From positions 43,249 through 107,248 of the forward strand of contig CAYZHB010000001.1 of the NCBI GenBank assembly GCA_964478245.1: a stretch of 64,000 nucleotides of DNA, given 5' to 3'. The translations under genes and the position numbers were made by a program. Origin of the DNA: an uncultured Desulfobacterales bacterium. Its GTDB lineage: Bacteria > Desulfobacterota > Desulfobacteria > Desulfobacterales > Desulfobacteraceae. Position 1 is the stretch's first letter. Every line of letters starts with the position of its first letter. Below the pieces are notes generated by a model. The model searched no databases. It was not told the DNA's origin and saw nothing but the letters and a program-made list of their open reading frames with translations. Positions 37,101 to 58,954 of this stretch are shown here, piece by piece.

Positions 37101-37655
37101 AAGCTTGTAAAGGCGCACAAGACCAAAAAAGGGGACATGATGGCCTTTACACAGCTCGAGGATACCAGCGGTAACATAGAGGTGGTTGTGTTTCCCGATG
37201 TGTATGTCCGGGCCCATGACCTGATCACCGATGAAAAACCGGTCGTGATCGAAGGGAAGACCCAGAAAAGGGAAAACGGGGTCAAGCTTATTGCCGGGAA
37301 AATTGTCCCCATAGAGGCGGCCGAAGAAGAGTGGGCGGCGAGCGTGATTGTGAACGTCAACGGGGATGCGGAAAAAGGAGATACGGTTGAACGGCTGAAA
37401 ACCGTTCTGGGAAAATATCCGGGGAGCTGCCCCTTTTACCTCTGTGTCCGGCTGGCCGGCCGGGAAAATATCATCATCCGGGCATCGGAGGAGAACAGCG
37501 TTTCCTGCGATCCCGCCCTTTTCCGGGAAGTGACGAATCTCCTGGGGCCCGGTGCCATAGAAACGCGCTGTGCACCGGTGAAACAGCAGAACAACAACAA
37601 GAGACGGTTTAACAAAGGACAGACAAACGGTTATGCAAATAGCGGTGACCCATAA
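34116..37655 (+). CDS. dnaE: DNA polymerase III alpha subunit
   Basis: PHP domain HLHVHTEYSLLDG, the polymerase core, and a C-terminal OB fold; ~1180 aa. Confidence 0.95.
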   Translation: MSSEFYHLHVHTEYSLLDGAIRLDALFDRCRHFGMDSVAITDHGTMFGVAEFYKKAKAASIKPVIGCEVYVAPRTVDKKTPEDHKGLRHLVLLAKDREGYANLCRLATIAQLEGFYYKPRVDKRLLQEYSSGLIALSACLKGEIPWLIARDRKEEAVEAGRFFVSTFGGDNFFLEVQQNGMDLQTKVNQGLFELSRELSIPLVASNDCHYLKREDKRAHEILLCVQTGDVLNNQDRFKFDSDELYFKSPAEMTEAFDSFPGAIENTAEIVSRCNVEFDERRYHFPNFDATAGETENEMFEKAAREGFEEKLALAGSINPDIDEKLYRDRIDYEIKTIIDMGFPGYFLIVADFIRYAKDKGIPVGPGRGSAAGSMVAYAMGITALDPIEHGLLFERFLNPDRISMPDIDVDFCIEGRDEVYKYVVDRYGGGENVCQIITFGKMKSKAVIRDVGRVLNVSLPEVDEIAKLVPDNSKNLEQAINNVPQIMEKASETAEKKEMIDVSMLLEGLPRHASTHAAGVVIGDRPLVEYLPLYKGKEGEVLTQFDMKYVEELGLVKFDFLGLRNLTVIKNTLKLLRKGNKAVPDMDNIPLDDEKTYDLLSKADTTGVFQLESSGMKDLIKRLHPTGFNDIVALLALYRPGPLESGMTDHYVERKHGREKIEYLFDALEDVLKETYGVIVYQEQVMKIAGVLADYSMADADGLRKAMGKKKAAMMAEHRALFLKGAGKKGHDPARAQELFNLMEKFGGYGFNKSHSAAYAMISYQTAFLKAHYPVEFIAALMTSEMNNTDNVIKYMEECRSHGIEVLGPDINESDAIFTVVGNAIRYGLAAVKNVGEAAIEEIVRERDSDGKFSSVYDLCERVSLSRVNKKVIEFLIKCGAFDSTGYKRSQMMAVLGDAVDHGTVVQRGKNDSQLDLFADTGIGVEVTAGHPELPDIEEWDENDLLFFEKESLGFYFSGNPLGRYEDILQKYCNVTTVSVQELSDGRTVRIGGIIKLVKAHKTKKGDMMAFTQLEDTSGNIEVVVFPDVYVRAHDLITDEKPVVIEGKTQKRENGVKLIAGKIVPIEAAEEEWAASVIVNVNGDAEKGDTVERLKTVLGKYPGSCPFYLCVRLAGRENIIIRASEENSVSCDPALFREVTNLLGPGAIETRCAPVKQQNNNKRRFNKGQTNGYANSGDP

Positions 37656-38931
37656 AGGCACTGATTTTGACGCCCTTGCCTCCCTGGCAGCGGCAACGGT
37701 TCTCTATCCCGGCACTCTGCCCGTACTGCCCACCTATGTAAACCAGAACATCAAGAGTTTTCTGGCGATTCACAAGGACCTGTTCAATTTTTATTCGCCA
37801 AAGGATATTGATACCAGCGAGGTGACCTCCCTGATCGTGGTGGATACCAACTCCTGGGAGCGCCTTGAAGGCGTGGCGGCACTGCGGGAGAAAAAAGATC
37901 TCGAAATTATCATATGGGATCACCACGGGAAGGGCAATATCAGGGCCGGTACCGTTTATCAGAAAGATACCGGGGCCACTGTCAGCCTGATGGTCAAAGA
38001 GATGGAAAAACAGAAGAAACTGATCACGCCGATTCAGGCGACGTTGTTTCTGATGGGCATATACGAGGATACAGGCCATCTCACTTTCCCCGCCACCCTT
38101 TCCGATGATGCCTATGCGGCGGCCTATCTGCTCGAGCGCAAGGCTGATCTCAATATTCTCAACACCTTTCTCCGCCAGGCATACGGGAAAAAACACAAGA
38201 ACATCCTGTTTCATATGCTGAAAAAAGCGGAGAGGGTGAAGGTGAACGATTTCTCGGTCAGTATCGGGAAAATCGATATAGAAGGACGGGTACAGAATCT
38301 GGCCATGGTGGTTCAGATGTACCGGGAGATCGTTAATGTGGACGCGGCCTTCGGTATTTTCAGGGATACGGAAAGCAGCAAATGCATGGTGATCGCCAGA
38401 AGCGGTGTGGAGGAACTCAATATGGGCACCATTATGAGAAGCATGGGCGGCGGCGGCCATCCCGGCGCCGGATCGGCCCAGCTTAAAAACGTAAATCCCG
38501 ATGTGATCGAAGAGATGCTCCTCGAGATGATAAAGGGAAACCGGCAATCTTCCGTGATGATTTCCGATATTATGTCCTATCCGGTTGTCACGGTGGATGA
38601 AAAAACAACAGTGGCAGAGGTGGCTGAAATGTTGCGGGAAATCGGATGTACCGGTCTGCCTGTCGTGGATGAAAAGGAAATCTTGACAGGTGTTGTCTCC
38701 AGGCGGGATTTCAAGCGGATCCGGAAGGACTCCCAGATGCAGGCCCCTGTCAAGTCCATCATGAGCCGGGATGTGGTGACCCTGTCGGCTGACAGCAGCG
38801 CCGTTGATGCGGCCAAACTCATGATAAAACACGATATCGGCAGAATTCCCGTTATAGCGGAAGGGAAAATCGCCGGCATCGTGACGCGGTCCGATACCAT
38901 GCTCTACTTTTACGATCTCTTGCCCGACTGA
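37633..38931 (+). CDS. DHH/DHHA1 phosphoesterase with C-terminal CBS pair
   Basis: DFDALAS, IIWDHH and GGGHPGAGSA motifs, plus two CBS-like modules. It overlaps the dnaE end by 23 nt. Confidence 0.7.
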   Translation: MQIAVTHKGTDFDALASLAAATVLYPGTLPVLPTYVNQNIKSFLAIHKDLFNFYSPKDIDTSEVTSLIVVDTNSWERLEGVAALREKKDLEIIIWDHHGKGNIRAGTVYQKDTGATVSLMVKEMEKQKKLITPIQATLFLMGIYEDTGHLTFPATLSDDAYAAAYLLERKADLNILNTFLRQAYGKKHKNILFHMLKKAERVKVNDFSVSIGKIDIEGRVQNLAMVVQMYREIVNVDAAFGIFRDTESSKCMVIARSGVEELNMGTIMRSMGGGGHPGAGSAQLKNVNPDVIEEMLLEMIKGNRQSSVMISDIMSYPVVTVDEKTTVAEVAEMLREIGCTGLPVVDEKEILTGVVSRRDFKRIRKDSQMQAPVKSIMSRDVVTLSADSSAVDAAKLMIKHDIGRIPVIAEGKIAGIVTRSDTMLYFYDLLPD

Positions 38932-40577
38932 ATTTTAAGCTTTTTCCTGGCTTTTTCCGCCAGTTTTTCCCGGAAAATTTTTGAATTGTGCCGGATATCC
39001 ACCGGCAGTGATTTGACAATAAAAATATGCGCGATCTCTTCTGTGAGCGGGGAGGCCCCTTTCATCTCATGAAGTGATTTCAAAAGCGCTTTTTTATCCC
39101 GGACCTCCGGATGCGGTTCCACAAAAACCACCGGGATTTCAAACCCTTTTGTCCCGACCCCTGCCAGCGCACTCCGGTACACATCCTTGTGGTTGTTGAA
39201 AACGGCCTCGCACGGAATGGTATACAGCGGTCCCTTTTCGGTGGTCACCCTGTGGCTTTTCCGGCCGCAGAACCAGAACCGGCCCTTTTTGTCCTTCCAG
39301 GCCAGATCACCCATGCGGTGCCAGATGGCGCCTGTGGCATCCGGTATTTTGGCCAAAAGGTCCGCCCCTTTGTCATCGAAATAATGTCGTGTCACAACCG
39401 GTGATTTTACGATGATCTCGCCGACCTCGTTTTCCGGGAGTTCATGGGTGTCCCGCAGCTGGGTAATGGGGTCGTCCGTAATTCTGATGATTTTGACCAG
39501 GGTGTCCCGGATAGGCCGGCCGATACAGGTGCCGAATCCCTTTTCACTTAACGATTTTGTCTCTGACAGAATTTCGGTGCCCGTGACGGAGATGACGGGG
39601 ACGGCCTCGGTTGCCCCGTAAGGCGTGTGTATTTCGGCGGTTTGCGTCAGAATGCCGGAAAACAGCTCAATACTTGACGGCGGTACCGGCGCCCCGGCCG
39701 AAACAACCCGCCTGAGGGACTCGAGTTTTATGTTGTTCTTGCTGCAGTAACTGCCGAGCCGGTAGAGCAGGGCAGGGGAGGCGAACATGTTGGTGACCCC
39801 GTGGTCTTCAATGGCTTCGATCAAAAGTCTGGGGTTTGCCCGGGCCGGTTTCGTGGGGTTCATGTCGGGAATTACGGCCGTCATGGCAAGCGCCGGATCA
39901 AACAGGGCAAACAGCGGAAAGGTGGGCAGATCGATTTCGTCAGGTCCGATCCTGAAGTGATCGGATATCTGCCGGATCTGGGCATCGAAATTGCCGTGGG
40001 TATACACGACCCCCTTGGCCGGGCCGGTGCTGCCGGTTGTAAACACAATCGCGGCAGTTTCACTCTTCGGGGTTCTGGCCGGAGAGTAGGGTCTGTCGGT
40101 TTTTTCAAACAGCTTGTCCAGATTGTATCCGCCCCAGAACCACCTGCTGCCCACGGTTATCCATGTTCTGATCGATTTGAAAAATCGCGGCCTGAGTCTG
40201 CGCAGTACGTGGGCCTTTTCGATGCCGATAAACGCCCTGGGTTTTCCCCGGGAAAAGCACTCGAGCATGCGCTCCAGCCCCATGCCCGGATCCACTACCA
40301 CCGGGACGGCGCCTGTTTTAAACATGGCAAAGATGATATAGAAAAATTCGATGGAAGGGGTCACCATTAAAATGGTTCTCGTTCCCCTGATCACACCGGC
40401 TTTTTCAAGTCCGAACGCCAGCCGGTCCGATTTTTTGTCGAGCTGACTGAAAGTGACCTGGCTGTACTGGACCCGTCCCCTGCCGTCCCTGCCGGACGGG
40501 AATACAACCGCCCTTTTGTAAGGGTGCTTGCGTGCGGTCTGTTTGAGACCGTGGGCAATATTGACGAGGTGGCTCAT
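38910..40577 (-). CDS. oleC: OleC-like adenylate-forming enzyme (olefin beta-lactone synthetase family)
   Basis: TTGSTGPAKGVVYTH AMP-binding motif. The N-terminal pattern NIAHGL...A...P...A / ILMVTPSIEFFYIIFAMFKTGAVPVVVDPG matches what I recall for OleC rather than generic acyl-CoA ligases. Operon context with oleA/oleB. Confidence 0.65.
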   Translation of the reverse strand: MSHLVNIAHGLKQTARKHPYKRAVVFPSGRDGRGRVQYSQVTFSQLDKKSDRLAFGLEKAGVIRGTRTILMVTPSIEFFYIIFAMFKTGAVPVVVDPGMGLERMLECFSRGKPRAFIGIEKAHVLRRLRPRFFKSIRTWITVGSRWFWGGYNLDKLFEKTDRPYSPARTPKSETAAIVFTTGSTGPAKGVVYTHGNFDAQIRQISDHFRIGPDEIDLPTFPLFALFDPALAMTAVIPDMNPTKPARANPRLLIEAIEDHGVTNMFASPALLYRLGSYCSKNNIKLESLRRVVSAGAPVPPSSIELFSGILTQTAEIHTPYGATEAVPVISVTGTEILSETKSLSEKGFGTCIGRPIRDTLVKIIRITDDPITQLRDTHELPENEVGEIIVKSPVVTRHYFDDKGADLLAKIPDATGAIWHRMGDLAWKDKKGRFWFCGRKSHRVTTEKGPLYTIPCEAVFNNHKDVYRSALAGVGTKGFEIPVVFVEPHPEVRDKKALLKSLHEMKGASPLTEEIAHIFIVKSLPVDIRHNSKIFREKLAEKARKKLKIQSGKRS

Positions 40578-41401
40578 TGAAAAATGTTTTTGACGGTATT
40601 GATGGTGTTTTTGACGAATCCCTGGTCTTTTTCTTCTCTGGCACTGCCGGTATCGACTCTTTTGAGAAGACCCGCCACTTCATCGAGCGCTTCTTGGGCA
40701 TCCGATACAAGCGCTTCCCGCTTTTCGGAAATTTCGGTTTCGCCCCGGGTTCTGTTGACACTGTAAAGCACGAAAAGATCTTTCACTTCCTTTTCGATTT
40801 TATCAAAAGCTCTTTGGAGGTCCTTTTTCGCTTTTTCCCATTCTTTTGCTTCCCTTTGGGCAATCCGGCTCTGTTCAGGGTATTTGTCTGCAATATTCTC
40901 TATTCTTTCGATCTCGCCGTTGATAAGGGTTATACGTCGGTTGTACTCGCGCAGCGCGTCGTAAAGGTTGTTCATGTGGACAAAGGAGAACCAAAGCATC
41001 TCTTCGGGAAGGGCCACATTGGCGAGTTCTTTCTGTTCGTATACCGCCTTTTCCGTGTCCGTGCCGGTGAAGTAGACCCTGTAGACAACATAGGCGGAGC
41101 CGGCAACCGCGGCCAGCACAAGAACCAAAGTGACAACGGCTTTGATGCTGAAGCGCCGTTTAGACGCAGCCGTGGACTTGCCGGGCGGTGATTTTTTCTT
41201 TTCACTGTTTTCGGCGGACTGGGTTTCCTGCCCGCCGGCCCCTTTGACGTCCTGTTTTTCCCTTTCGGCTCCGTCCCCTTTCTTTTTTCCTTTTTTCTCT
41301 TCTTTCCGGGCCTTTTTCGCCTCTTTCCGGGCCGCTTTCTTTTCCTGCCGTTCCCGTTTTTTCTCTTCTTTGCTCTTTTTGTCTTTAGATTTTAAAGCCA
41401 T
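40574..41401 (-). CDS. Lys/Glu-rich, single-pass coiled-coil membrane protein (unknown function) embedded in the ole operon
   Basis: ~85-aa KKEE-rich N-terminus, a TM helix (AVVTLVLVLAAVAGSAYVVYRVYF), then ~170 aa of heptad-like charged sequence. 4-nt overlap with the oleC start. Confidence 0.6.
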   Translation of the reverse strand: MALKSKDKKSKEEKKRERQEKKAARKEAKKARKEEKKGKKKGDGAEREKQDVKGAGGQETQSAENSEKKKSPPGKSTAASKRRFSIKAVVTLVLVLAAVAGSAYVVYRVYFTGTDTEKAVYEQKELANVALPEEMLWFSFVHMNNLYDALREYNRRITLINGEIERIENIADKYPEQSRIAQREAKEWEKAKKDLQRAFDKIEKEVKDLFVLYSVNRTRGETEISEKREALVSDAQEALDEVAGLLKRVDTGSAREEKDQGFVKNTINTVKNIFQ

Positions 41402-41433
41402 GAATACTTAAATACCCGACCGGCGTCCAAAAG

Positions 41434-42363
41434 TCAAAAGGAGATGGCATCCTTTTCCAGAAATTCTTTTATGAGAACCGCGGTCTGGCCGGGTTTGTCT
41501 TCAAAAAGGTAGTGGCCCGCATCTTCGAACAGATATGTCTGAGCCTCTGGGAACCGTCTGCGCCATTCGTTGAAGAAATGCATGTCAAACACGAAATCGT
41601 GTTTCCCCCACAAAATCTGCAGCGGAACCGTTTCAAGGGTGTAAAGGTTTTCATCGACATGCCGGGCGGTTTTAAACGACCGGTCTTTCGGTGTCAGGGG
41701 AATGTCCTGGACGAACTTCAGGGTGGCCACCCGGTTTTTCCACGAGTTGTACGGAGCGGTGAGTCCCTTTTTTGCTTCTCTTGAAAGGGGTTTTTTCGCG
41801 GCCGTATACAAGGCGCCTCTGGAAAAGAGGTTGAACATGGACACGGCGGGGACTGCCAGGGCGGTCAAGTATTTGAAAAACGCCAGCCGCAAAGGAAACT
41901 TTTTGCCTTTCGGCAGCAGGAACCCGGATGTATTCGTGACAGTGATCCTGTCGATCCGGGAAAGATTGGCAAGCGCCCAGGCCAGCCCGATCATCCCGCC
42001 CCAGTCATGAAGGATGAGGGATATTTTTCCGGTCAGGCCGAGATGACGGATAAATCGGTCAAGATCCGCCACCCGTCTGTCCAGGGTGTAGCCGTACGCC
42101 CGCGGGGAAGGCTTGTCCGAAAGCCCGCACCCGATATGGTCGGGAACGATGCATCTGAACCGGCCCATGAGCGGCGGGACAATGTTTCGGAAATAAAAAG
42201 ACCAGGGGGGGTTGCCGTGAAGCATCAAAACCGGCCGGCCCCGGCCCTCGTCAATGTAGTGAAGGGAAAAGCCGTCAATTTCAACGAACCTGGATTCAAA
42301 AGGGAAGAGCGCCTTGATGGGTTCCGTGGAAACGGGTTTCCCGTTGATAACTCTTGTCACCAT
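41434..42363 (-). CDS. oleB: OleB-like alpha/beta hydrolase (haloalkane-dehalogenase-like; beta-lactone decarboxylase family)
   Basis: LMLHGNPPWSFYFRN, LILHDWGGMIGLAWA, and a C-terminal ...DAGHYLFEDKP. 7-nt overlap with the oleA end. Confidence 0.65.
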   Translation of the reverse strand: MVTRVINGKPVSTEPIKALFPFESRFVEIDGFSLHYIDEGRGRPVLMLHGNPPWSFYFRNIVPPLMGRFRCIVPDHIGCGLSDKPSPRAYGYTLDRRVADLDRFIRHLGLTGKISLILHDWGGMIGLAWALANLSRIDRITVTNTSGFLLPKGKKFPLRLAFFKYLTALAVPAVSMFNLFSRGALYTAAKKPLSREAKKGLTAPYNSWKNRVATLKFVQDIPLTPKDRSFKTARHVDENLYTLETVPLQILWGKHDFVFDMHFFNEWRRRFPEAQTYLFEDAGHYLFEDKPGQTAVLIKEFLEKDAISF

Positions 42364-43409
42364 TGAACACCCAGGATCAGGCAGTTGAGGCCGCTGCCCA
42401 CACCGAGAAACGCCACAAAATCCCCTTTCCGGAGAAACCCCCTCTCGTCGGCAATGGCGGCGGTAATGGGAAGAGATACCGTGCCGACATTGCCCAGGAA
42501 AGGATAGGTGGCAAAATCCTTTTTCATATCGATGGTTAGGGCTTTGTAAAAAGCGTTGTGATGTGCCGCTCCCACCTGATGGGCGATAAATCGGTCCACC
42601 TGGTCCGAAGAGATGCCGAATTCCGCCAGGAACTGTCGGAAGGAGGCCACGGCCAGTTCCATCCCCTTTTCCAGCACGCCGTCCGCCTTTGTTCTCATGA
42701 TCACCTTTGAATCCGTGGGCATGCCTTTTTCGGCAAACCCCCAGTGGCAGAGCCCGTGGTGCTGAATGGCATTTTTGACAATGCCGCCCTTTACGGCATG
42801 CCGTTTTCCGTCTGTCTGGGGGAAAGAACCGTCCGTCAAAAGAACCGCCACTGCTCCGGATCCGCCCGTCATGGTGGCGACCGTCTCTTTGTAAAAGGCA
42901 ATGCTCTTTTTTTCGTTAATTTCGTCGATGGTGGCATCCACGATCTGGCGCGCCGTTTCACAGGAGACCACCAGCCCCGCCCGGATATGTCCCAGCTCGA
43001 TTGCGTTTGCCACCTGTACAATGCCGGTGATCACCCCCAGGCAGGCGTTGGCCACATCGTAAACATGAGCGTTCCGGCTGATGTCGAGGGCGTCGGCTAT
43101 GGCGCACGAGGTCGCCGGTTCAAAGCCGTCCTGGCAGACGCCGCAGAAAACCAGGGACTCGATCTGGTCCGGCGGGATCCCGGCTTCATCAATGGCTTTC
43201 CGTCCGGCTGCGGCCGCCCCTTCTGCAAGGGTGTGGTCTTCGTCCCAGTAACGGCGTTCCCGGATACCGGTCAATGTCTCGAGCTGTCCCGGTTCGAATC
43301 CCACCGCATTGAAAAACGGCATCAGTTTTTCCTCTATGTCATCGGTCGTCACCACGTGGGGCGCCAGTTCATATCCAAAGGCGTCAATAAACACGTTGTT
43401 GTATCTCAT
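42357..43409 (-). CDS. oleA: OleA-like thiolase (head-to-head acyl-CoA Claisen condensing enzyme)
   Basis: MRYNNVFIDAFGYELAPHVVTTDDIEEKLMPF... and YDVANACLG align in pattern with Xanthomonas OleA as I recall it. The start abuts the megasynthase stop (43409/43410). Confidence 0.65.
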   Translation of the reverse strand: MRYNNVFIDAFGYELAPHVVTTDDIEEKLMPFFNAVGFEPGQLETLTGIRERRYWDEDHTLAEGAAAAGRKAIDEAGIPPDQIESLVFCGVCQDGFEPATSCAIADALDISRNAHVYDVANACLGVITGIVQVANAIELGHIRAGLVVSCETARQIVDATIDEINEKKSIAFYKETVATMTGGSGAVAVLLTDGSFPQTDGKRHAVKGGIVKNAIQHHGLCHWGFAEKGMPTDSKVIMRTKADGVLEKGMELAVASFRQFLAEFGISSDQVDRFIAHQVGAAHHNAFYKALTIDMKKDFATYPFLGNVGTVSLPITAAIADERGFLRKGDFVAFLGVGSGLNCLILGVQW

Positions 43410-46400
43410 TTACCTTCTCCATATTGCTTCAATATCGTTTCTCGAAAGTCCGGCCATTTTCATGCCCATATCCCTGTACAGCACAATCTGCAGATCATCG
43501 GCAAACATGCGGGCATCCGCCTTTACATACGGTTCGGGCGCGTATCCCATTTCTTTCACTTCCACGTAATAACCGGCCTTTCGGGTGTCGCAGGTGACAG
43601 GCCCCCTGCATTTCAGATCGCTTTCAAACCCTTCAACAATATCCCAGTGGATATCGTCCCGTTCCGATATCCACCCCATCCGCAGTGTGAATATTCGCAA
43701 GGCGTGGGCGCAGCATTCGTACATCAGCGTGCCCGGCATTACCCTGTCATCGGTAAAATGGCAAGTCAAAAACCAGTGATCCGGACGGATATCCGCCTGG
43801 GCCGTGATCGCCCCGAGGCGGAAACGGCCGCCTTCCGGCTCGAAAAGGGTGACCCGGTCGATCAGGTGCATGCGGCCGCCGGGAAGCCGCAGTCCCCTGC
43901 CAAGCGTACACCCGTCAAATTTTTTTCCGAAGGCCTGTGACAGGTTCCCGCTTCTCAGGGCGTTTACCTGCTGATCGTCAAACGCGGCGTTTCGGGCCCT
44001 GGCGGGCGGAAGCCATGGTCTGCCGCCGAACGATTTTCTTTTTTCATTCTGTTTCAGTACGATGCCCTGGGAATTTTGTATCTCCTCCGGGGTAAAAAAA
44101 CCGGCACACCCGTCCCGCATGGAGATAAAGGGGGCGCCGTCAATGTAGCCGCGGTAGTGGAAAAAGAAGAGGTACACGTCCTGCTGTTTTAAAAACCGGT
44201 CGATCTCGATGTGGAACTCGATCGTCTCGCCGGGAACGGGGAGCGGCCGGTGAAAAGTGACTTTGGCATCGAGCAGCCGGTACCGCCTTTTTCCCTGTAC
44301 CGCGTGGTCGATTCCCAGATAGGAACACAGGAAAAGATCGGCCTGACCGGCCTCGATGGATATGGACACCGGTGCCCGGCCGCCGTCAAGATACCAGGCA
44401 TCCGCTTTGACATCATGCTGGGTGATGATTTTTCCGCTGGAAAGGGAACACATCTCGCCTTCGATGGCCATTATCCGGTCAACGAGCATGAGCGGTTCAT
44501 CCGGCAGTCTCACCCGCACCGGATAGGAGTCAACGATGTGAAATCTCTCTCCCAGAACGGTGGCCGCTTTGCCGGTGGCGAACGCCATGCACATGTCGCG
44601 GTCAAACAGCGGTTCCTGCCGGGAATTTTTTTTCCCGGCAGGGGCTGAAGCCACTGCTGTGTCATCTGTCGCAGCTGAGCCTTCTGCCGCAGCTGCAGGT
44701 CTGTTGTGCTCGGAAAGGATGGCATGTTCCGCTGCCATATTGTCTGTCAGGCGGCCGGCGATACGCGTCAAGGCCTGGAACTGGACTTCACAGGCAGCCA
44801 TGTTGTCCCGGGTGAGGGCAAGAAATTTTTCGTGCAGGCCGGCGCAGGAGAGTGTTTCTGAAAGATTTTCAATGGCGATGGCGTCCGGCGTCCCGGCTGC
44901 GGCGGCTGAAGCAAAATTTTCGGCATTGATGCTTGTGGGGTCAGCTGCGCCGGTTACTGGGCCAGCATTCACACCGGGGGTTGCTGTGGTTTTTTCCCGC
45001 CGGGATGGCGTCACTTTGAAATAGGGGCCCAGGTCCACATCCACCCCGTTTGCGGCCAGTTTTGCAAGGCCCTTCAAAAAAGCGGTTCCTTCGGATGCCT
45101 CTCCGGAAGAAAGAGAGACACTCAGGTGTTCCTCTGATGCCAGTGTTTTCCCGACCAGCCGGCTGCAGGAAGCGCCGGGACCGATTTCAAGGAAAATCCG
45201 GACATTGTCCCGCCAGGCGTTTTGAATGAGGGCGGAATAATCAAATCCGTGCAGCGCCTGTTGGAGTATAAGTTCCGCCGTTCTCTCTTCCTCGGGTACA
45301 TAGCGCTCCCCCAGAAAGCAGGAATAGAAATCGATATTTGGATCGGGGCGGCATTCGAACCGGTGAAGATCCCGGTATGCCGGGGCCGCTTCCTGTGCCA
45401 CGGGACAATGCACGCTGACCACGCCTTCGAGGAACATGGCACCGCACCCCGTGTCCTTTATAAATCGGCGAACCGCGGTCTCCTCCCCGCCGATTACCGT
45501 CTCTTCAGGCGAGTTCACGATGAGCAGATACACCCGTTCGTATGAATTGATGCGTTTCCGGATTGCTTCTTCAGAGCGGTTTACCGCGGCGGCAACCCAT
45601 CTGACAGGTTCTTTCGGTCCCATTTGCCAGACCTTTCTTGCAAGGGAAAGGTCGCCGGAAAGTTTGTGGGTGAAAAGATCGGTATTTTCCATGCGGCGGC
45701 GCATGGCCCCGGCATCCGGCCAGACGCCGAGAGACAGAAGCATGGCCGATTCGCCCAGGCTGTGACCCATGGCGGCATGCGGAGCAATGTTAAACCGTGA
45801 GGCAACGGCGGTCATGAGGATGCCGTAGGCGATCTGACCGAATATCATGTGGTGGGGGTTTTCCCGGATATTTTGCCGGGCGTTTTCCTGCCAGTCTTTG
45901 TCCCACGAGAGACGCCAGGGATAGTAAAGATGGGGCAGAAACATCTGTTTCAGGGAATGCCCTTTTTCTGCCATCTCCTGCAGTATGTCCGGAAACATGA
46001 GACCGAGCTCCCGGCCCATCTGCAGGAAGTGGTTGCCGGAGCCGGGGTACAGAAAGGCAAGCTTTCCCTGTCCGGCCATGGGCGTAAGGGTGTATGCCAC
46101 CCCCTGGTCTTCCTTGATGTCAGTCGACTCTCCCTGTCTGACGGCGCGTTCGGCCCTGTCGAGCCAGGAAAGCAGGTCGGCCGTACTGTCGGCCACAATG
46201 GAAAGGGTGTGCGGCATACGGGGTTGGTCCGATGTATCGTCGTACCATTTTTTGGCGGCGACATAAACGCTGCCGGTTCCGGCGAACTGTCGTAACCGGT
46301 GGATTTCGCATATAAGCGCCGGCTCACTTTTCCCCCGGAGGATAAAAATGCCGCGCTTCTGAAAAGGCAGTGTGAACCGGTCCGTTTCCCGGCAGGTTGT

Positions 46401-49106
46401 GTCCGGACAGGCCTCGATCACGGCATGGGCGGCGCTGCCGTCAGCTGTCATCGACCCGATCAGTGCCGTCCGTTTGGAAGCTGGCGTTTCTTTGATCCAG
46501 TATCCCGGATACACAGGGATATGGAAACGCCCGGAAATAAAATTGTGAAAGGCCGGGATGCGAAATCCGGCAAGGGGCGGCAGTATGCCGGTATAACAGG
46601 CAAGAGCGGCCTGTATAAAAGAGACAAGGGCCGACACCCCTTTGGTGTCCCCGACAGTGCCGGACGCCGAGCTCACCGCTGTCCGGAAAGGAATGTCAGC
46701 ATTTATGGAAGCGGTGTTTTCACCAGGCGCCTTATCGGGGTTGTCCCCGGCGGCGGCATCAAGAGCGGCCGCTTCCACTGTATCCGCTTGCGGGTTCCCG
46801 GAACCATGGGCTGCGTACAGACCGATCCGGTGGAAATCGACGGATGCGTCATGGAGGGTCTTTTCAAGAGACGCCTTGCAGACATCTGTCATTTCGTCGG
46901 TATTCCCGGCATCTTCCCATGCCATGGGACCGGCGGACGCACTGCCCGTGCCCCTGATCACACAGTAAATTCTGTCATTGTCGGCTACGGCCCGGTCCAG
47001 GGGTTTCAACACCACTGCGGCGGCCCCTTCAGAAGGAACGGCACCGTCCGCCGCCCGGTCAAAAGGACGGGCGGTCCATGTCGGTGAAAAAGGGCGCACC
47101 GTTTCGTCAAGGGAAAGCTGCCGCGGATCGCATGCCATGTCCACGCAACCGCACAGAAAATGGCCCGCCTCCCCGGAAGAAACGGCGTTTACGCCTGCCT
47201 GAAACGCTTTTATGCCGGAGGCGGCGCCTGCCGACACGGTAAAGCAGGGGCCGCCCAGCTTGAACTCCCTGGCCACCCGGCTGGCCACAATACCGCCGAG
47301 TGCCCCGAGGGTCCGGCTCGCGGTAAGGGGCGGGGCAACGGCATCAGGGTCATCTTTCCCCAGGCCTGCGGTTTTCCAGCGCCGGTAATAGTCTGTCGCC
47401 TTGAAGTCGAAGGCGATGCCAACGGCCGCACCAAAGTCTGTTCTCGGTTTTTCGTCCTTTGCCGGCCGGTGGGCAAAGCCGGCATCTTTCAGCGCCTCTT
47501 TTGACGCTTTCAGCATGAGAAGCTGGTTCGGCAGTATGTCATCCATCTGGTTGGGCGGAATGTGAAATTCACCAGGCGTTAAATCCGCCCACTTCGAAAA
47601 AGAGTTTATACCGCCGGAGATCGGTTCACCGGAAAAGACCCGGCTGAAAAAATCCGTCAACCCGTTGCAGGTGCCGGTCAGAATGCCCATGCCGACAACC
47701 GCGACCTGCCGGCCGACAGGTTTAAACCCGGGTGCCTCCTGTGTCACGGCGGCCGGCCGCCGGGGCGGAGTGAAAAGTTTCGTGCTGTCGGTGTTGTGTT
47801 CCCTGACAAGCATATGGGCATTGATGCCGCCGAATCCGAAGCCGCTCACAGCCGCTTTTCTGACATCGCTGCCTGTCGGGGTCTCCCAGTCGGAGACATC
47901 TGTCTGCACCGTGAATCCGGTCTGTTCCAGGGGGCTGTTTTCAGCGGGCGCGGAAAAATTGAGTGACGGGGGCAGGAATTTGCCGTTCATGGCCACGAGG
48001 GTTTTGATCATACCGGCCGCTCCTGCCGCGGTGAGCAGGTGCCCGGTCATGGATTTGACCGAACCGATGGCGCACTTGTACGGGGTGTCTGCCATATCAT
48101 GCCACACCGCTGCCATGGAGTTGAGCTCGATTGTATCACCGACAGGCGTGCCGGACCCGTGGCATTCCACATGCTGAACATCGGCGGGCGACCAGCGGGA
48201 AAGCCGGTATGCCTGTTTCATCGCCCGCACCTGGCCTTCAGAGGCCGGGGAAACGAGGCTGCCTTCAATATCGTTGGACATGCCGCAGCCGGATATCACG
48301 CCGTATATGGGGTTTTTTGCGGCAAGTGCATCCTGGAGCCGCTTGAGCACCATGATCCCGGTGCCTTCTCCGACCACGAGACCGTCCGCTTTCCTGTCGA
48401 ACGGCGCGCACCTGCCGGATGGCGAGAGCGCCTTGAGCTGGGTAAAACCGATCTGCGTGTACAGAAGATCGGTTCTTGAAACACCCCCTGTGATCATCAT
48501 GTCGGCCCGGTTACAAGAAAGTTCATCGCATGCAAGCTTCACGGCGTAAAGGGAGGAAGCGCAGGCAGCATCCAGTGTAAAAGTTCCGCCTTTAAACCCG
48601 AAAGCCCTTGCGATAATGGCGGCCGGCAGCGAGACAACCTCTGCCGCGGCCGCCTCGGCAGAGGTGATCGCCGCTTTTTCCCGGTGCATGATTTGCCATG
48701 CGGTTTCAGACGCGCTTTCGGTGGGAAGGGATATGGCGGCAAGGATCACCCCTGTCCGTTCTCTTAAATCCTTATTCACGGAAAGATTTACAAGCGCCTT
48801 TCTGCCGGCCTTAAGCACCAGCTTGTGCGTCGTGTCGAGCTGTTCCAAAAGCCCGGCCGGCAGCATAAAGCCGTCCGGATCGAAAGAGAAGTCCGTGATC
48901 ACGCCCGCCCTGCCGGATACCGCTGTATCCGGCATCGATCCGGGTGACAGGACCTTCTCTTTGGGCAGCACCCACCGGTCCGCGGGCACCTCGATAATGG
49001 CCGGTTTTTTTTCCAGAAGGTTTTTTTCAAAAACCCCTATGTCGGAAGCACCCGGAAAAATACAGTCTGTCCCGACAATGGCAATTTCATGGGGTCGGTT
49101 TTTCAT
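43410..49106 (-). CDS. PUFA-synthase-like (PfaC / myxobacterial Pfa3-like) multidomain enzyme: KS - CLF - AT - FabA-type DH
   Basis: - KS (aa ~5-437; nt 49094-47796): DAACASS Cys182, ECHGSGTPVGD, KSMTGHLLTAAG.
- CLF (aa ~467-900; nt 47708-46407): SAGAAS replaces the active-site Cys.
- AT (aa ~1015-1320; nt 46064-45147): GHSLGE Ser1116.
- Ala-rich linker.
- Double hot-dog DH (aa ~1498-1890; nt 44615-43437): HWFLTCHFTDDRVMPGTLMYE.
- I saw no ACP, KR or ER motif. Confidence 0.8.
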   Translation of the reverse strand: MKNRPHEIAIVGTDCIFPGASDIGVFEKNLLEKKPAIIEVPADRWVLPKEKVLSPGSMPDTAVSGRAGVITDFSFDPDGFMLPAGLLEQLDTTHKLVLKAGRKALVNLSVNKDLRERTGVILAAISLPTESASETAWQIMHREKAAITSAEAAAAEVVSLPAAIIARAFGFKGGTFTLDAACASSLYAVKLACDELSCNRADMMITGGVSRTDLLYTQIGFTQLKALSPSGRCAPFDRKADGLVVGEGTGIMVLKRLQDALAAKNPIYGVISGCGMSNDIEGSLVSPASEGQVRAMKQAYRLSRWSPADVQHVECHGSGTPVGDTIELNSMAAVWHDMADTPYKCAIGSVKSMTGHLLTAAGAAGMIKTLVAMNGKFLPPSLNFSAPAENSPLEQTGFTVQTDVSDWETPTGSDVRKAAVSGFGFGGINAHMLVREHNTDSTKLFTPPRRPAAVTQEAPGFKPVGRQVAVVGMGILTGTCNGLTDFFSRVFSGEPISGGINSFSKWADLTPGEFHIPPNQMDDILPNQLLMLKASKEALKDAGFAHRPAKDEKPRTDFGAAVGIAFDFKATDYYRRWKTAGLGKDDPDAVAPPLTASRTLGALGGIVASRVAREFKLGGPCFTVSAGAASGIKAFQAGVNAVSSGEAGHFLCGCVDMACDPRQLSLDETVRPFSPTWTARPFDRAADGAVPSEGAAAVVLKPLDRAVADNDRIYCVIRGTGSASAGPMAWEDAGNTDEMTDVCKASLEKTLHDASVDFHRIGLYAAHGSGNPQADTVEAAALDAAAGDNPDKAPGENTASINADIPFRTAVSSASGTVGDTKGVSALVSFIQAALACYTGILPPLAGFRIPAFHNFISGRFHIPVYPGYWIKETPASKRTALIGSMTADGSAAHAVIEACPDTTCRETDRFTLPFQKRGIFILRGKSEPALICEIHRLRQFAGTGSVYVAAKKWYDDTSDQPRMPHTLSIVADSTADLLSWLDRAERAVRQGESTDIKEDQGVAYTLTPMAGQGKLAFLYPGSGNHFLQMGRELGLMFPDILQEMAEKGHSLKQMFLPHLYYPWRLSWDKDWQENARQNIRENPHHMIFGQIAYGILMTAVASRFNIAPHAAMGHSLGESAMLLSLGVWPDAGAMRRRMENTDLFTHKLSGDLSLARKVWQMGPKEPVRWVAAAVNRSEEAIRKRINSYERVYLLIVNSPEETVIGGEETAVRRFIKDTGCGAMFLEGVVSVHCPVAQEAAPAYRDLHRFECRPDPNIDFYSCFLGERYVPEEERTAELILQQALHGFDYSALIQNAWRDNVRIFLEIGPGASCSRLVGKTLASEEHLSVSLSSGEASEGTAFLKGLAKLAANGVDVDLGPYFKVTPSRREKTTATPGVNAGPVTGAADPTSINAENFASAAAAGTPDAIAIENLSETLSCAGLHEKFLALTRDNMAACEVQFQALTRIAGRLTDNMAAEHAILSEHNRPAAAAEGSAATDDTAVASAPAGKKNSRQEPLFDRDMCMAFATGKAATVLGERFHIVDSYPVRVRLPDEPLMLVDRIMAIEGEMCSLSSGKIITQHDVKADAWYLDGGRAPVSISIEAGQADLFLCSYLGIDHAVQGKRRYRLLDAKVTFHRPLPVPGETIEFHIEIDRFLKQQDVYLFFFHYRGYIDGAPFISMRDGCAGFFTPEEIQNSQGIVLKQNEKRKSFGGRPWLPPARARNAAFDDQQVNALRSGNLSQAFGKKFDGCTLGRGLRLPGGRMHLIDRVTLFEPEGGRFRLGAITAQADIRPDHWFLTCHFTDDRVMPGTLMYECCAHALRIFTLRMGWISERDDIHWDIVEGFESDLKCRGPVTCDTRKAGYYVEVKEMGYAPEPYVKADARMFADDLQIVLYRDMGMKMAGLSRNDIEAIWRR

Positions 49107-49289
49107 AGCCGCATATATAAGACCTTACGCGGGAAAAGAACACCCGTCCTGTGTAAAAATTGTGTAAAAAAGTTCAGACTAAAATTCGGTTGACTTAAAG
49201 CGGGGTGCTGGGGTATGAAATAGAGAGTAAAAAGGGCGGACAATGGAAAACTGCTGACTCACCAGGTAAAACTGAACAGGGGTGGTCAC

Positions 49290-49799
49290 ATGACGATGAA
49301 AAAATGTATCAACTGCGGCAGTGAGGTCAACGAGCAGCAAAAAGTGTGTCCCGAGTGCGGTGCATCACTGGAACAGTCCAAATCACTGGGGTTTATTCCG
49401 TTTCTGTTGATTATCCTGATAGCGGTCACGATCATGAGTTATTTCGGATCCAACCGGCAAGATTCGGCTGAAAAAGAGAGCGGTGCCAACACGCCGCAGG
49501 TTGAAAAAACCGGCACGGAAGGGGGAACGTCAACTCAGGGCAGTGGAGCGGCGACTGCTTATGCGTTTGTCCAAAAGACCGTCCGGGAGCGCCTTGAAGA
49601 TTCAGGGCGCGTCACGTTCCCTTTAAAGGGTGAAGTGAACATACTGAAGATCGGTGCCGCAAATTATATTGTAAAATCGTATGTAAATGTGGCAAACGAA
49701 TCCGGTGAGACAACATGGCAGGAGTTTGCCGCCGAGATTGAAAAGGGTGCCGGAAACAGCGGGTGGCGCCTGATATCTCTGGCGTTTTCTGACACATAA
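49290..49799 (+). CDS. Zinc-ribbon membrane-anchored protein
   Basis: CINCGSEV...CPECGA zinc ribbon, one TM helix (FIPFLLIILIAVTIMSYF), then a ~100-aa extracytoplasmic domain. Confidence 0.6.
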   Translation: MTMKKCINCGSEVNEQQKVCPECGASLEQSKSLGFIPFLLIILIAVTIMSYFGSNRQDSAEKESGANTPQVEKTGTEGGTSTQGSGAATAYAFVQKTVRERLEDSGRVTFPLKGEVNILKIGAANYIVKSYVNVANESGETTWQEFAAEIEKGAGNSGWRLISLAFSDT

Positions 49800-49817
49800 G
49801 GTCGGCCGGATATCCAG

Positions 49818-51098
49818 ATGGAAATCTACAATGCCGTCAGCCTGGCCGGGCTTTTTGTACTGCTTCTGGCGGCGTGGCTTCTCTCGAACAACCGGCGGGC
49901 GGTCAATTTCAGACTGGTGGCCTGGTGTGTGGCCGCACAGCTTGTACTCGGTGTGCTGATATTCGTTTTGATTGCGGCCGTGCCGGACGCGTTCAATCCG
50001 TTCCTGATCCTCAACGATTTCGTGACTGTTTTAATAGCGGCTTCAAAAAAAGGCACCACGTTTGTTTTCGGCGAGCTGGCGAATGAAGAAAAACACGGAT
50101 TTATTTTTATCGTTCAGGCGGTGCCCACTATCATTTTTTTCTCGGGGATCGTGGCGATTCTCCAGCACTACCGGATCCTGCCCTGGTTGATCGGGATGCT
50201 TGCAAGGCTTTTCAGCTCCCGGCTGCGGCTTTCCGGTGCGGAATCCCTGGTCGGGGCTTCCAATATTTTTGTCGGTATCGAATCGTCCCTGATGGTCCGG
50301 GATTATATCGGCCGGATGACGCTGTCCGAATTGACAACCATACTTGCCTGCGGTATGGCAACGGTGGCGTCCAATGTGCTTGCCCTGTATGTTTTCGCCC
50401 TTCAGGGAAGCTTTTCTTCCATAGCGGCCCATCTTGTTTCGGCCTCCGTGCTCTCCGCGCCGGCCGCCCTGGCCATGTCCAAAATGCTGTTTCCGGAAAA
50501 TGAGACCCCCGTGACCGTTGGAAAAGATGTGCAGCCGGATTATGAAAAGAGTGCGTTTTTGTTCGAGGCGATCATTAAGGGTACCCAGAGCGGCGTCAAG
50601 TTGACGGTGGGGATTGTTTCCCTGCTGATCGCCATCCTGGGACTGGTGGAACTGGCCGATATCCTGCTTCAGAACGGGGCCGGCCTGTTTTCCCCGACAT
50701 TCGGACTGGATCTGAAAACAGTACTCGGCTATCTGTGTTATCCCCTTGCCCTGGTTATCGGGATTCCGCCGGCGGATGCCTTCGAGGTGGGACAGTTGAT
50801 CGGCATGCGGGTGGTGGAAACCGAGGTTCCCGCGTATTTTGCCCTCGGCCGGATGGTGGAGGCGGGTACCCTGGCATTCGCCCGCTCAAAGGTGATTGCC
50901 GCATATGCGTTGTGCGGATTCGCCCATATTGCATCGGTCGCCATTTTTGTGGGGGGGTATGCCGCACTGGCGCCGGACAGAACCGCGGATCTGGCCCGGG
51001 TCGGTATAAGGGCCCTGATCGCGGCCACGCTGGCCTGCCTGATGACCGCCTGTATTGCAGGGACCTTTTTCATGAAACATTCAATCATATTCTCCTGA
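49818..51098 (+). CDS. Concentrative nucleoside transporter (NupC/CNT family)
   Basis: GTTFVFGEL..., IIFFSGIVAILQHYRILPWLI, LSGAESLVGASNIFVGI, and a C-terminal CGFAHIASVAIFVGG. These are collinear with E. coli NupC as recalled. Confidence 0.8.
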   Translation: MEIYNAVSLAGLFVLLLAAWLLSNNRRAVNFRLVAWCVAAQLVLGVLIFVLIAAVPDAFNPFLILNDFVTVLIAASKKGTTFVFGELANEEKHGFIFIVQAVPTIIFFSGIVAILQHYRILPWLIGMLARLFSSRLRLSGAESLVGASNIFVGIESSLMVRDYIGRMTLSELTTILACGMATVASNVLALYVFALQGSFSSIAAHLVSASVLSAPAALAMSKMLFPENETPVTVGKDVQPDYEKSAFLFEAIIKGTQSGVKLTVGIVSLLIAILGLVELADILLQNGAGLFSPTFGLDLKTVLGYLCYPLALVIGIPPADAFEVGQLIGMRVVETEVPAYFALGRMVEAGTLAFARSKVIAAYALCGFAHIASVAIFVGGYAALAPDRTADLARVGIRALIAATLACLMTACIAGTFFMKHSIIFS

Positions 51099-51200
51099 CT
51101 GCCGGAACATTCAAACAGTCGGCATTCCTTCCCCCCGGTGCATGCCTTTCAATTATCTTCCGGAACAGCTCCCGTGATGCAGGGATGGTCTGTCATGCGG

Positions 51201-52547
51201 CTAATACGGGTATATCCATTCGATTTTTTTGAGGAAGGATTCAAGATACCGGGATTTTACCTGTTTCATTGCGAGCGCCTGTTTGAGGGGGGGCAGGTTT
51301 AAAATGACTTTCAGTACAGCCGCCATTGCCCTGTGGCTTTTCAGAACCTGATTGTCGAAAATCAGGTTCTGAAGTTTTCCCCGCTCCAGTGCCATGATCA
51401 CGGCCCTGTGCACCCCGTTCAACGGCGGTATGATCTTTTTTCCCCGCGATCTGAGGACGATATTACCGACAGGGCAGGCCCTGACACAGAGCCCGCATCC
51501 GAGACAGATATCGCTGTTCAGACGGGCTTTTTTTGTTTTGGGATCTGTTGGATCATTGGCGGAGACCAACGTCATGGCTTCAACAGGACATCTTTCCACA
51601 CATTTGCCGCATCCTTGGCACGCCGACTGGTTTACTTCGGGAATAAAGCCGGTGGTGTGAATGGGAGCGAGTACGGAAAACCGCTTATGAGCAAGCATGG
51701 CTTCACAGCAGCAGCCGCAGCAGTTGCAGATGAAATTGAGCCGGTGTCTTACATTGTCGCCGAACTGGACGAGGTTGCTCTCCCAGGCCTTATGCAGCAG
51801 TTCCATTCCTTCGGATTTGTCCGTTTCCCTTGCATGGCCGTGTTTTATAAGGGATTCGGCCGCATTGTTGAATGTCATGCAGGTGTCCATGGGGGCGTTA
51901 CAGGCTTTTCCCATATGATACATTTTATGGCGGCAGTAGCACAGGCTGATCCCCATACAGGAGGCCGACTGTATCACCCCGGTGGCCCGCTCCCACTCCA
52001 GCACCACCAGGGAGTTGTCCTCGTTCAGTGCGGGTTCATGCACAAAGGTCCTTCCCAGCTGTGTTTCCCCGCCAGCGAAGAGGTCTTTGACAAAATCCCC
52101 TTCCACGTTGAGGTACTCATAAAAGAGGTGGCTCAGCAATTTCTGATCCACATCTTCCCGGATACGCATCATTGAAAATTCGAAAAAACCGGCCATAGGG
52201 GGCGGCAGTACATATATGGTCTCGCCGTTGTGGTCGACGTCAAGAAGAATCGCCCTCGATGCAAGCGTCTCAAGGATTTTACGGGTTTCGGCAATATTCT
52301 TTTTCCAGACACGGCTCGCCTTTTCCGCGGTAAACGGTTTAATGGGCAGAAGGGAAACGAGTTCAGCCTCTTTTTCACTGAAAAGCATCTCCAGAATTTT
52401 AAACAGGAGCCGGGATTCAGGGGCGCCCTGCGGAAACTGATTCAGCCGGGCCGTGAGATGCCGATATGCCTTTTTCGTATTGTGGTGCGCCATAACAGAC
52501 CGTATCCTCTTGCCCGAAAATGTATCCTCGGGGGAAAAGAATGTCAA
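51201..52547 (-). CDS. Fe-S protein, paralog of 5002..6057 (wHTH-like N-terminus, CCGCCC cluster, 2x[4Fe-4S])
   Basis: ICNCCGCCCEAML, CQGCGKCVERCP, CLGCGLCVRACP. An alternative, paralog-consistent start is the ATG at 52493. Confidence 0.65.
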   Translation of the reverse strand: MTFFSPEDTFSGKRIRSVMAHHNTKKAYRHLTARLNQFPQGAPESRLLFKILEMLFSEKEAELVSLLPIKPFTAEKASRVWKKNIAETRKILETLASRAILLDVDHNGETIYVLPPPMAGFFEFSMMRIREDVDQKLLSHLFYEYLNVEGDFVKDLFAGGETQLGRTFVHEPALNEDNSLVVLEWERATGVIQSASCMGISLCYCRHKMYHMGKACNAPMDTCMTFNNAAESLIKHGHARETDKSEGMELLHKAWESNLVQFGDNVRHRLNFICNCCGCCCEAMLAHKRFSVLAPIHTTGFIPEVNQSACQGCGKCVERCPVEAMTLVSANDPTDPKTKKARLNSDICLGCGLCVRACPVGNIVLRSRGKKIIPPLNGVHRAVIMALERGKLQNLIFDNQVLKSHRAMAAVLKVILNLPPLKQALAMKQVKSRYLESFLKKIEWIYPY

Positions 52548-58896: not shown

Positions 58897-58954
58897 GTTC
58901 GTGATTTCATGATACCCACACCGTCTGGACTGTTAACTGTTAAAGGATATTTTG

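Follow-up and report, generated by a model that had tools for sequence, protein, structure and literature searches.

In Geobacter bemidjiensis, the genes pfaD, pfaA, pfaB, pfaC, oleA, oleB, oleC, oleD and pfaE are arranged in tandem and the organism makes C31:9 (hentriacontanonaene) (PMC4882568). Both the linkage of pfa and ole genes and the fusion of pfaB and pfaC have already been published for deltaproteobacteria (PMC3098273, PMC4882568). Linkage of the ole genes to a pfa cluster is optional, and they may be found at another place in the genome (PMC3098273); in Shewanella and Photobacterium the Pfa synthase supplies the substrate of OleA (PMC6463001). The recognised contexts of the ole genes are oleABCD, clusters with an oleBC fusion, and oleACD (PMC7064751); oleABC without oleD is not among them. 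Here we describe an operon of that last kind, which lies on the minus strand (38910-49106) of a 64,000-nucleotide stretch of contig CAYZHB010000001.1 from an uncultured Desulfobacterales bacterium. We call the whole stretch the window. The operon consists of a gene for a PfaBC-type megasynthase followed by oleA, oleB, a gene for an undescribed protein that we call X, and oleC. To our knowledge, the published Ole pathway treats oleD as obligatory.

Comparison with related loci gives good support to the view that the window operon is a trimmed, vertically inherited descendant of a pfa(B)C-oleA-oleB-X-oleC-oleD cluster, from which oleD and the second dehydratase (DH) of the megasynthase were lost. 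The anatomy of the operon and the family assignments of its products are equally well supported. We believe, with moderate confidence, that the operon would serve canonical head-to-head olefin synthesis from Pfa-type acyl chains, and that genes for the reductase and PfaA/PfaD would lie elsewhere in the genome. In the literature searched, we found no orphan PfaC or PfaBC gene that heads an ole operon without an adjacent pfaA or pfaD, no family-wide oleABC layout without a local oleD, no PfaC variant with a single DH, and no description of the X family.

Enzymes of the operon

A preliminary description of this DNA had assigned a Pfa-type megasynthase, OleA, OleB and OleC. All four assignments hold when profile scores and scores against the sequences of PDB entries are considered, and the motifs that it quoted are all present (YDVANACLG within HVYDVANACLG, HGNPPWS, HDWGG and TTGSTGPAKG).

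The megasynthase gene (43410-49106) encodes 1898 residues, in which Pfam, NCBIfam and motif matches give the domain order ketosynthase (KS), chain-length factor (CLF), acyltransferase (AT) and DH. Pfam finds two stretches each of ketoacyl-synt and Ketoacyl-synt_C, followed by Acyl_transf_1 and FabA, and NCBIfam returns PfaA KS, PfaB family and FabA matches; the motifs DAACASS, ECHGSGT, GHSLG and HFTDDRVMPG are present. The KS (residues 7-450; 47757-49088) has intact active-site Cys and His motifs according to Pfam and the motif search. Pfam, the translation and an alignment to relatives place a second, CLF-like KS at about residues 465-900 (46407-47714), with the active-site Cys replaced (SAGAASG). 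The second-best PDB match of the megasynthase is the KS-CLF didomain of Moritella PfaC (6RIW; residues 7-715, 290 bits), and this match, with the Cys kept in the first KS and missing from the second, identifies a PfaC-type KS-CLF didomain. A PfaB-like AT with the GHSLG motif follows at about residues 995-1361 (45024-46124), recognised by alignment and by a match to TIGR02816 pfaB_fam that, at 90 bits, is under the cutoff of 144. The protein ends in one FabA-type DH didomain (pseudo-hotdog plus FabA, about residues 1497-1898; 43413-44618; PF07977 at residues 1741-1875), where PfaC and the sister clade described below have two.

The megasynthase has no acyl carrier protein (ACP), ketoreductase (KR) or enoylreductase (ER) domain, and a search of it for the GxDSL ACP motif found none. 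It was correct to call the protein PUFA-synthase-like, as 6RIW and the Pfam domains indicate that it is Pfa-type, but it corresponds merely to the PfaB/PfaC-like part of such a synthase. As it lacks carrier and reductase domains, it should be unable to work without a carrier-bearing partner.

The 350-aa product of oleA (42357-43409) is classed by profile and structure-sequence scores as a head-to-head Claisen-condensing thiolase. It scores 181 bits against the Xanthomonas campestris OleA structures (3ROW) and at most 69 bits against FabH, and it reaches 442 bits on NF006720, for which the cutoff is 285. It is 34% identical to X. campestris OleA, and in alignment it keeps the equivalents of Cys143, His285 and Asn315 as well as the OleA-specific Glu117, as expected of a member of the OleA family.

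The 309-aa product of oleB (41434-42363) is an Abhydrolase_1 protein. Its scores on the haloalkane dehalogenase (HLD) models are all under the curated cutoffs (158 bits against 241 on NF002938, 137 against 265 on NF002043 and 135 against 466 on NF002873), so it does not qualify as an HLD. The Asp nucleophile and the His base are kept (HDWGG and GHYLFED are conserved), and the OleB proteins of complete oleABCD clusters share 47-56% identity with it. We regard it as an HLD-like OleB and a putative beta-lactone decarboxylase. A lineage-specific Thr-to-Pro change marks the window OleB at about residues 55-61: it has HGNPPWS, and both clades of relatives described below share the consensus HGNPTWS. 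The change is in an HLD-type motif beside the oxyanion/halide-binding region.

The 555-aa product of oleC (38910-40577) is an ANL-family homologue of olefin beta-lactone synthetase. It scores 710 bits on NF006754 (cutoff 478). The two models for olefin beta-lactone synthetase (OleC equivalogs, cutoffs 850 and 900) give 565 and 562 bits, and the best fatty-acyl-CoA ligase (FACL) model gives 166. OleC proteins of the sister clade, which come from oleD-linked clusters, likewise fall under the equivalog cutoffs (608 and 605 bits). On these scores we place the protein in the OleC family, as a putative beta-lactone synthetase, and not with the FACLs. The preliminary description had staked its case on the 350-aa protein not grouping with FabH and the 555-aa protein not grouping with acyl-CoA ligases; by bit score neither does so.

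Pfam and NCBIfam scans found no gene for OleD or another short-chain dehydrogenase/reductase (SDR) of the pathway in the operon or anywhere in the window; the absence that had been noted for the operon extends to the full 64 kb. The only SDR gene of the window, at 58952-59980, was considered as an oleD candidate and rejected. Its product scores 70 bits on the OleD model (cutoff 580) and is a sugar epimerase/dehydratase whose gene adjoins one for UDP-glucose dehydrogenase, and hence it is not OleD. The window also has no genes for PfaA (KS-MAT-tandem ACP-KR), PfaD (ER), PfaE/phosphopantetheinyl transferase (PPTase) or ACP. With oleB present and oleD absent, the locus is not a beta-lactone natural-product cluster of the oleACD/lst type.

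Relatives, gene order and protein X

We compared the window with about 95 related loci that were mapped by tblastn. They came from a scan of species-representative genomes, a protein search, and a metagenome scan with alignment of OleA, which added 80 loci. The genome scan found the same operon in Desulfospira and Desulfotignum. The protein search returned hundreds of proteins that are 68-75% identical to the window OleA and are named Desulfobacter, Desulfobacula, Desulfospira or Desulfobacteraceae. A closed Desulfobacter sp. genome (CP054838.1) encodes KS-CLF-DH, OleA, OleB, a 233-aa protein without a Pfam match, OleC and a convergent DHH-CBS protein. Genomes of Desulfospira (the closed genomes OY761554.1 and OY760175.1 among them), Desulfotignum and Desulfobacter carry the operon with this convergent neighbour, as do about 45 metagenome contigs.

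A tree of OleA resolves two monophyletic clades. In clade 1, to which the window belongs, OleA is 61-75% identical to the window OleA and the megasynthase always has a single DH didomain. The DHH-CBS gene abuts oleC in 27 of the 28 clade-1 loci that reach 2.4-7.4 kb past oleC, and X is present in 22 of 39 loci that cover both oleB and oleC (window counted). In clade 2, the sister clade, OleA is 49-56% identical to the window OleA and the megasynthase has 1880 residues (KS-CLF-DH-DH) or 2339 residues (KS-CLF-AT-DH-DH); in one locus (L096, 387-5982, from a 959-kb contig) it is split into a KS of 553 aa and a CLF-DH-DH protein of 1198 aa. Twelve of the 15 informative clade-2 loci have oleD 33-337 nt past oleC, with a product that scores 409-412 bits on NF042422; in L082 this gene spans 11366-12394. 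The exceptions are L059, L084 and L085, where an ABC transporter set or a glycosyltransferase gene lies downstream; the genes that follow oleC in L059 and L084 were considered and are not pathway reductases. Full six-gene clusters that include X survive in other Desulfobacterota, in the more distant locus L098 and on the contig that encodes the X homologue P0334.

Because the sister clade and the distant genomes have pfa(B)C-oleA-oleB-(X)-oleC-oleD with two DH didomains, the window operon is a derived form. Of the two DH didomains in clade-2 loci L082 and L084, DH1 shares 57-59% identity with the window DH, and DH2 shares 22-24%; the window DH is thus orthologous to DH1, and it is DH2 that was deleted. 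In L079, L082 and L086, all of clade 2, the DHH-CBS gene lies a few kb past oleD, and thus the clade-1 layout looks like a deletion between oleC and DHH-CBS. The AT domain is absent from the Desulfospira, Desulfotignum and Desulfobacter orthologues. Within clade 1 only the window and L033 have it, and the window AT is 35-40% identical to those of L033, L059, L084 and L098.

None of the 28 clade-1 contigs that extend 2.4-7.4 kb beyond oleC carries oleD. The missing gene is therefore not an assembly error, a possibility that had been left standing in the preliminary description. Additionally, no related locus that we mapped has pfaA or pfaD beside the megasynthase. The group does include unlinked ole genes: no oleD adjoins the oleABC genes of L059 and L084/L085, and no oleA adjoins oleB-X-oleC in L092 (4467-9889), where genes for a second alpha/beta-hydrolase and a PPIase lie upstream. 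The L092 case shows that in these lineages the ole genes can be scattered.

Protein X (275 aa; 40574-41401) matches no Pfam or NCBIfam family. A word-indexed search recovered X alone, and the family surfaced in an exhaustive search of 1.84 billion representative proteins, with 133 clusters at E <= 1e-3 and 88 at E <= 1e-10. The N-terminus of X is rich in Lys. AlphaFold2 (AF2), when given an alignment of 69 sequences, predicts a single transmembrane helix at residues 86-112, then a bundle of three long helices, and at the C-terminus an amphipathic helix, with a mean pLDDT of 83.8 and values of 96-99 over residues 121-250; the single-sequence prediction was poor (pLDDT 56). The conserved domain spans about 150 residues, and the homologues end in LYKLKKKFL. 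Sequence-profile searches of the PDB and Foldseek searches returned generic helical or designed proteins only (best Foldseek E-value 0.37). With no meaningful fold match, we claim no relationship to BAR, ESCRT-III, Vipp1 or apolipoproteins.

Six distant members of the X family, 22-29% identical, were read for context. Two lie in PfaBC-OleA-OleB-X-OleC-OleD clusters, namely P0308 in L098 (PfaBC of 2360 aa) and P0334 on its contig (PfaBC of 2362 aa). The others lie in OleA-OleB-X-OleC (P0318, L094), in OleB-X-OleC (P0293, L092; P0299, L099), or stand alone (P0350, L093). Homologues also occur between oleB and oleC in L001 and L010. We therefore consider X to be a recurrent accessory gene of ole clusters, with homologues usually between oleB and oleC, and not a one-off insertion. 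The order oleA-oleB-X-oleC had been given correctly before; what it left as a bare X turns out to be a conserved ole-associated family that is also present in clusters with oleD. As X occurs in clusters having oleD, it is not a substitute for OleD.

The boundaries of the five minus-strand genes in the open reading frame (ORF) list are exactly those of the preliminary description. Its statement that the megasynthase is translationally fused to the ole genes is wrong, as these are five separate cistrons that are translationally coupled at most. The ATG of oleA directly follows the TAA stop of the megasynthase gene, and a Shine-Dalgarno-like GGAGAAGG run precedes this ATG inside the end of the megasynthase gene. 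An overlap of 7 nt joins oleA and oleB, a gap of 32 nt separates oleB from X, and X and oleC overlap by 4 nt. Because the gene order is identical in more than 45 independent contigs and genomes, the operon is more than a chance arrangement.

At its 3' boundary the operon meets the convergent DHH-DHHA1-CBS gene (37633-38931, plus strand, 432 aa; Pfam and NCBIfam), whose 3' end overlaps that of oleC by 22 nt. Upstream lies an intergenic region of 183 nt (49107-49289), which by ORF spacing is presumed to be the promoter region of the minus-strand operon. It is followed by plus-strand genes for a Zn-ribbon protein (49290-49799, with a divergent start at 49290) and for NupC (49818-51098), both from the ORF list and Pfam. 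The convergent end and the plus-strand genes upstream are as previously reported. Scans for consensus promoters and terminators found nothing above the shuffled-sequence background; one promoter-like match lies at 49330-49303, and such matches are no more frequent than in shuffled sequence. The probable limits of the transcript are drawn from gene spacing and synteny.

Several features of the neighbourhood are worth recording. The DHH-CBS protein is a standalone protein and its gene is the constant convergent neighbour of oleC across Desulfobacteraceae; it scores 231 bits on the model of A-adding tRNA nucleotidyltransferase (NF041569), far under the cutoff and over the N-terminal half only (1-427 of 880). 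The gene next upstream of the megasynthase gene, on the same strand, encodes a rhomboid protease in most relatives (L001 4661-5473, L006 4894-5628 and about 20 other loci). The rhomboid gene of the window, at 52759-53502, is set apart from the megasynthase gene by three inserted genes (49290-52547), which encode the Zn-ribbon protein, the nucleoside transporter NupC and a 4Fe-4S protein of 448 aa. Where other genomes have the rhomboid gene, just upstream of the megasynthase gene, two assemblies of Desulfobacter sp. have insertion sequence elements of different types, with an ISL3 transposase in one case and an IS66/IS240-like element in the other (L010 3835-5049; L011 4559-5269). The same two assemblies encode, about 5 kb upstream of the operon, a 720-aa protein with PF01553 (glycerolipid acyltransferase) and alpha/beta-hydrolase parts (L010 1-774; L011 1-1479). 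This protein may be lipid-related; none is found near the operon in the window.

In several clusters of the sister clade the gene right after oleD encodes a small protein with a PocR sensory domain, about 165-170 aa long (L057 5427-5927, L062 15614-16108 and L096 11180-11695), and response-regulator genes follow oleD in L098 and on the P0334 contig. It is possible that these are dedicated regulators of pfaC-ole clusters. L050 and L051, with an OleA 64% identical to that of the window, are rearranged: genes for a Schlafen/AlbA_2-HTH protein, a YdcZ exporter and a metallo-beta-lactamase-fold protein lie between oleA and oleB, and DHH-CBS and oleC are inverted relative to the usual order. No substitute reductase was found among these intervening genes in L051.

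The reductase step

We estimated selection on the Ole enzymes by the Nei-Gojobori method, using hundreds of pairs with dS of 0.1-1.5. Median dN/dS values in clade 1 and clade 2 were 0.135 and 0.19 for OleA, 0.164 and 0.20 for OleB, and 0.139 and 0.22 for OleC. We also compared the clades at columns that are at least 95% conserved within each of them. The residues differ between the clades at 0 of 166 such columns in OleC, 2 of 76 in OleB and 3 of 93 in OleA. The oleD-linked sister clade thus shows no stronger purifying selection on OleB and OleC than clade 1 does. Thus, the enzymes that act after the reduction are kept unchanged, which argues against decay and against a changed function, and implies that a 3-hydroxy substrate is still supplied. 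The preliminary description had offered a remote reductase or an unusual product as the two options; selection and the unchanged OleC columns favour an unlinked reductase and make an unusual product less likely.

Based on these data, we propose a model in five steps. First, the KS-CLF-AT-DH megasynthase would work in trans with a remote PfaA/PfaD-type partner, or possibly with the ACP of the type II fatty-acid synthase (FAS), to make unsaturated acyl chains. Second, OleA would condense a pair of these chains head to head, which would give a 2-alkyl-3-oxo acid. Third, a reductase encoded outside the locus (a relocated OleD or another SDR or KR) would form the 3-hydroxy acid. Fourth, OleC would close the beta-lactone and OleB would decarboxylate it to a long-chain (poly)olefin. 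Fifth, X, as a single-pass membrane protein with a helical bundle and an amphipathic C-terminal helix, probably tethers the Ole enzymes to the membrane that receives the hydrophobic product, or organises them there. We base steps one to three and step five on family membership, and step four on selection and conservation. An unlinked oleD is the simplest explanation and ranks as the most likely; for the reductase and for PfaA/PfaD a remote location is inferred, as is the identity of the product.

Several observations weigh against this model. A protein search with a sister-clade OleD as query gave no oleD tied to a clade-1 genome among the best 120 matches listed, all of which are at least 64% identical; a clade-1 orthologue would be expected at about 50-60% identity, below the range of those matches. 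Three OleD matches were read in context, and none gives evidence of an unlinked oleD: P0226 lies in an oleC-linked cluster, P0121 is the query itself, and P0240 is on a 1.5-kb contig, which is too short to reveal its neighbours. Synteny resembles a plain deletion of oleD, as the sister clade has oleC-oleD-...-DHH-CBS and in the window oleC abuts DHH-CBS, and it gives no sign of relocation. Both oleD and DH2 were lost across the whole of clade 1, and this could point to changed chemistry. The window OleC and the sister-clade OleD both fall under the NCBI equivalog cutoffs. The model also presumes genes for OleD, PfaA, PfaD and a PPTase in the genomes that carry the operon.

The alternative that survives best, although we think it rather unlikely, is that the pathway truly works without OleD. 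The beta-keto acid made by OleA could decarboxylate by itself to a long-chain (poly)unsaturated ketone, with OleB and OleC taking on other roles such as chain release and activation; or a reductase other than OleD, such as the KR of PfaA or FabG, could supply the hydroxy acid in a new form of the pathway. The absence of oleD from all 28 clade-1 loci that reach past oleC and from the 64-kb window, the syntenic hint of deletion over relocation, the loss of DH2 in the same clade and the lack of a clade-1 OleD among the best 120 matches listed are all consistent with this idea. However, an orthologue at 50-60% identity falls outside those matches, the operon contains no reductase-like domain, and X does not replace OleD. 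The near-identity of OleC and OleB to their oleD-linked counterparts at conserved columns, and selection on both that has not relaxed, also argue against it. The broader proposal is that Desulfobacteraceae run an OleD-independent Ole pathway organised at the membrane by X. OleC would then receive its substrate from a reductase other than OleD, such as FabG or the KR of a Pfa partner, or the pathway would end in a different neutral lipid, for example a polyunsaturated long-chain ketone. We consider this proposal unlikely.

It is improbable that the megasynthase mainly serves core fatty-acid synthesis, with its FabA-type DH and KS-CLF acting on the type II FAS ACP and its position next to the ole genes a matter of history. 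Desulfobacterium autotrophicum HRM2, of the same family, has been reported to lack fabA and fabZ homologues (PMC3098273), the megasynthase has no ACP of its own, and no related locus has an adjacent pfaA or pfaD. Against this idea stand the tight TAA-ATG junction with oleA, the PfaC-type KS-CLF didomain (6RIW), and the adjacency of pfaC and oleA, which is kept across two deep clades and in Geobacter (PMC4882568).

That the operon is a decaying, non-functional remnant left after the loss of oleD is hardly credible. The losses of oleD and DH2 and the patchy occurrence of the AT domain and of X among relatives might suggest decay, but all five ORFs are intact, the catalytic motifs are conserved, the operon is kept across at least four genera, and dN/dS values of 0.14-0.16 over hundreds of pairs effectively refute it. 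The notion that these are enzymes of ordinary fatty-acid metabolism (FabH, HLD and acyl-CoA ligase) that lie beside a polyketide synthase by chance, or that oleD is missing through misassembly, can be dismissed: public annotations do name the proteins '3-oxoacyl-ACP synthase III' and 'fatty acid CoA ligase family', but the bit scores given above separate them from FabH, HLD and FACL, their orthologues sit in complete oleABCD clusters, and the junction of oleC with DHH-CBS is repeated in 27 independent contigs, closed genomes included.

Significance and comparison with known systems

Desulfobacteraceae are abundant marine sulfate reducers. Across this whole family, selection maintains oleA, oleB and oleC at a locus that has no oleD and is headed by an orphan gene for a PfaC-type synthase. 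Should the reductase merely be encoded elsewhere, the operon is a variant gene layout that still predicts Pfa-derived long-chain polyolefins in Desulfobacteraceae. Such polyolefins have not been reported for this family and would be possible sediment biomarkers. If no OleD exists, the pathway would need another reductase or another product. The operon poses a clear and testable question about the reductase step. Additionally, because X recurs between oleB and oleC in several lineages, this protein, with its predicted transmembrane helix and helical bundle, is a candidate for a missing part of a membrane-associated Ole assembly.

Of the described systems, the pfa-ole supercluster of G. bemidjiensis (Type I secondary lipid synthase; PMC4882568, PMC3098273) resembles the window in that a pfaC-type gene is followed by oleA, oleB and oleC on the same strand, in that PfaB and PfaC functions are present, and in that the host is an anaerobic deltaproteobacterium. 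The proposal that a Pfa-type enzyme is the first cistron of an ole operon holds for the window, although pfaC directly upstream of oleA was already known from this organism (PMC4882568). In contrast to G. bemidjiensis, the window has no pfaD and pfaA upstream and no oleD and pfaE downstream, its megasynthase has one FabA-type DH instead of two, and X is an extra gene between oleB and oleC.

The canonical oleABCD clusters of X. campestris, Stenotrophomonas and Shewanella (PMC7064751, PMC6463001) share with the window homologues of OleA, OleB and OleC in which the catalytic residues are kept. They differ in having a local oleD, and the window has a Pfa-type first cistron; its X is unrelated to the Xanthomonas accessory genes with PF13784 and PF03692. 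The megasynthase itself resembles the PfaC and PfaBC subunits (Moritella PfaC, 6RIW; pfaBC fusions [KS-CLF-AT-DH2] of Types C, D and I) in its KS-CLF-AT-DH order and FabA-type DH. Unlike these subunits, it has a single DH didomain and its gene is not clustered with pfaA or pfaD.

The pfaC-oleABCD clusters of the Desulfobacterales sister clade (L062, L082 and L096) have a layout close to that of the window operon. In the six-gene pfaBC-oleA-oleB-X-oleC-oleD clusters of L098, on a 4.6-Mb contig, and of the P0334 contig, the first five genes match the window gene for gene. Between the window and L098 the identities are 42% for KS-CLF, 40% for AT, 55% for DH1, 51% for OleA, 50% for OleB, 26% for X and 56% for OleC. 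Neither kind of cluster is described in the literature searched, and both differ from the window in keeping oleD right after oleC and a second DH in the megasynthase.

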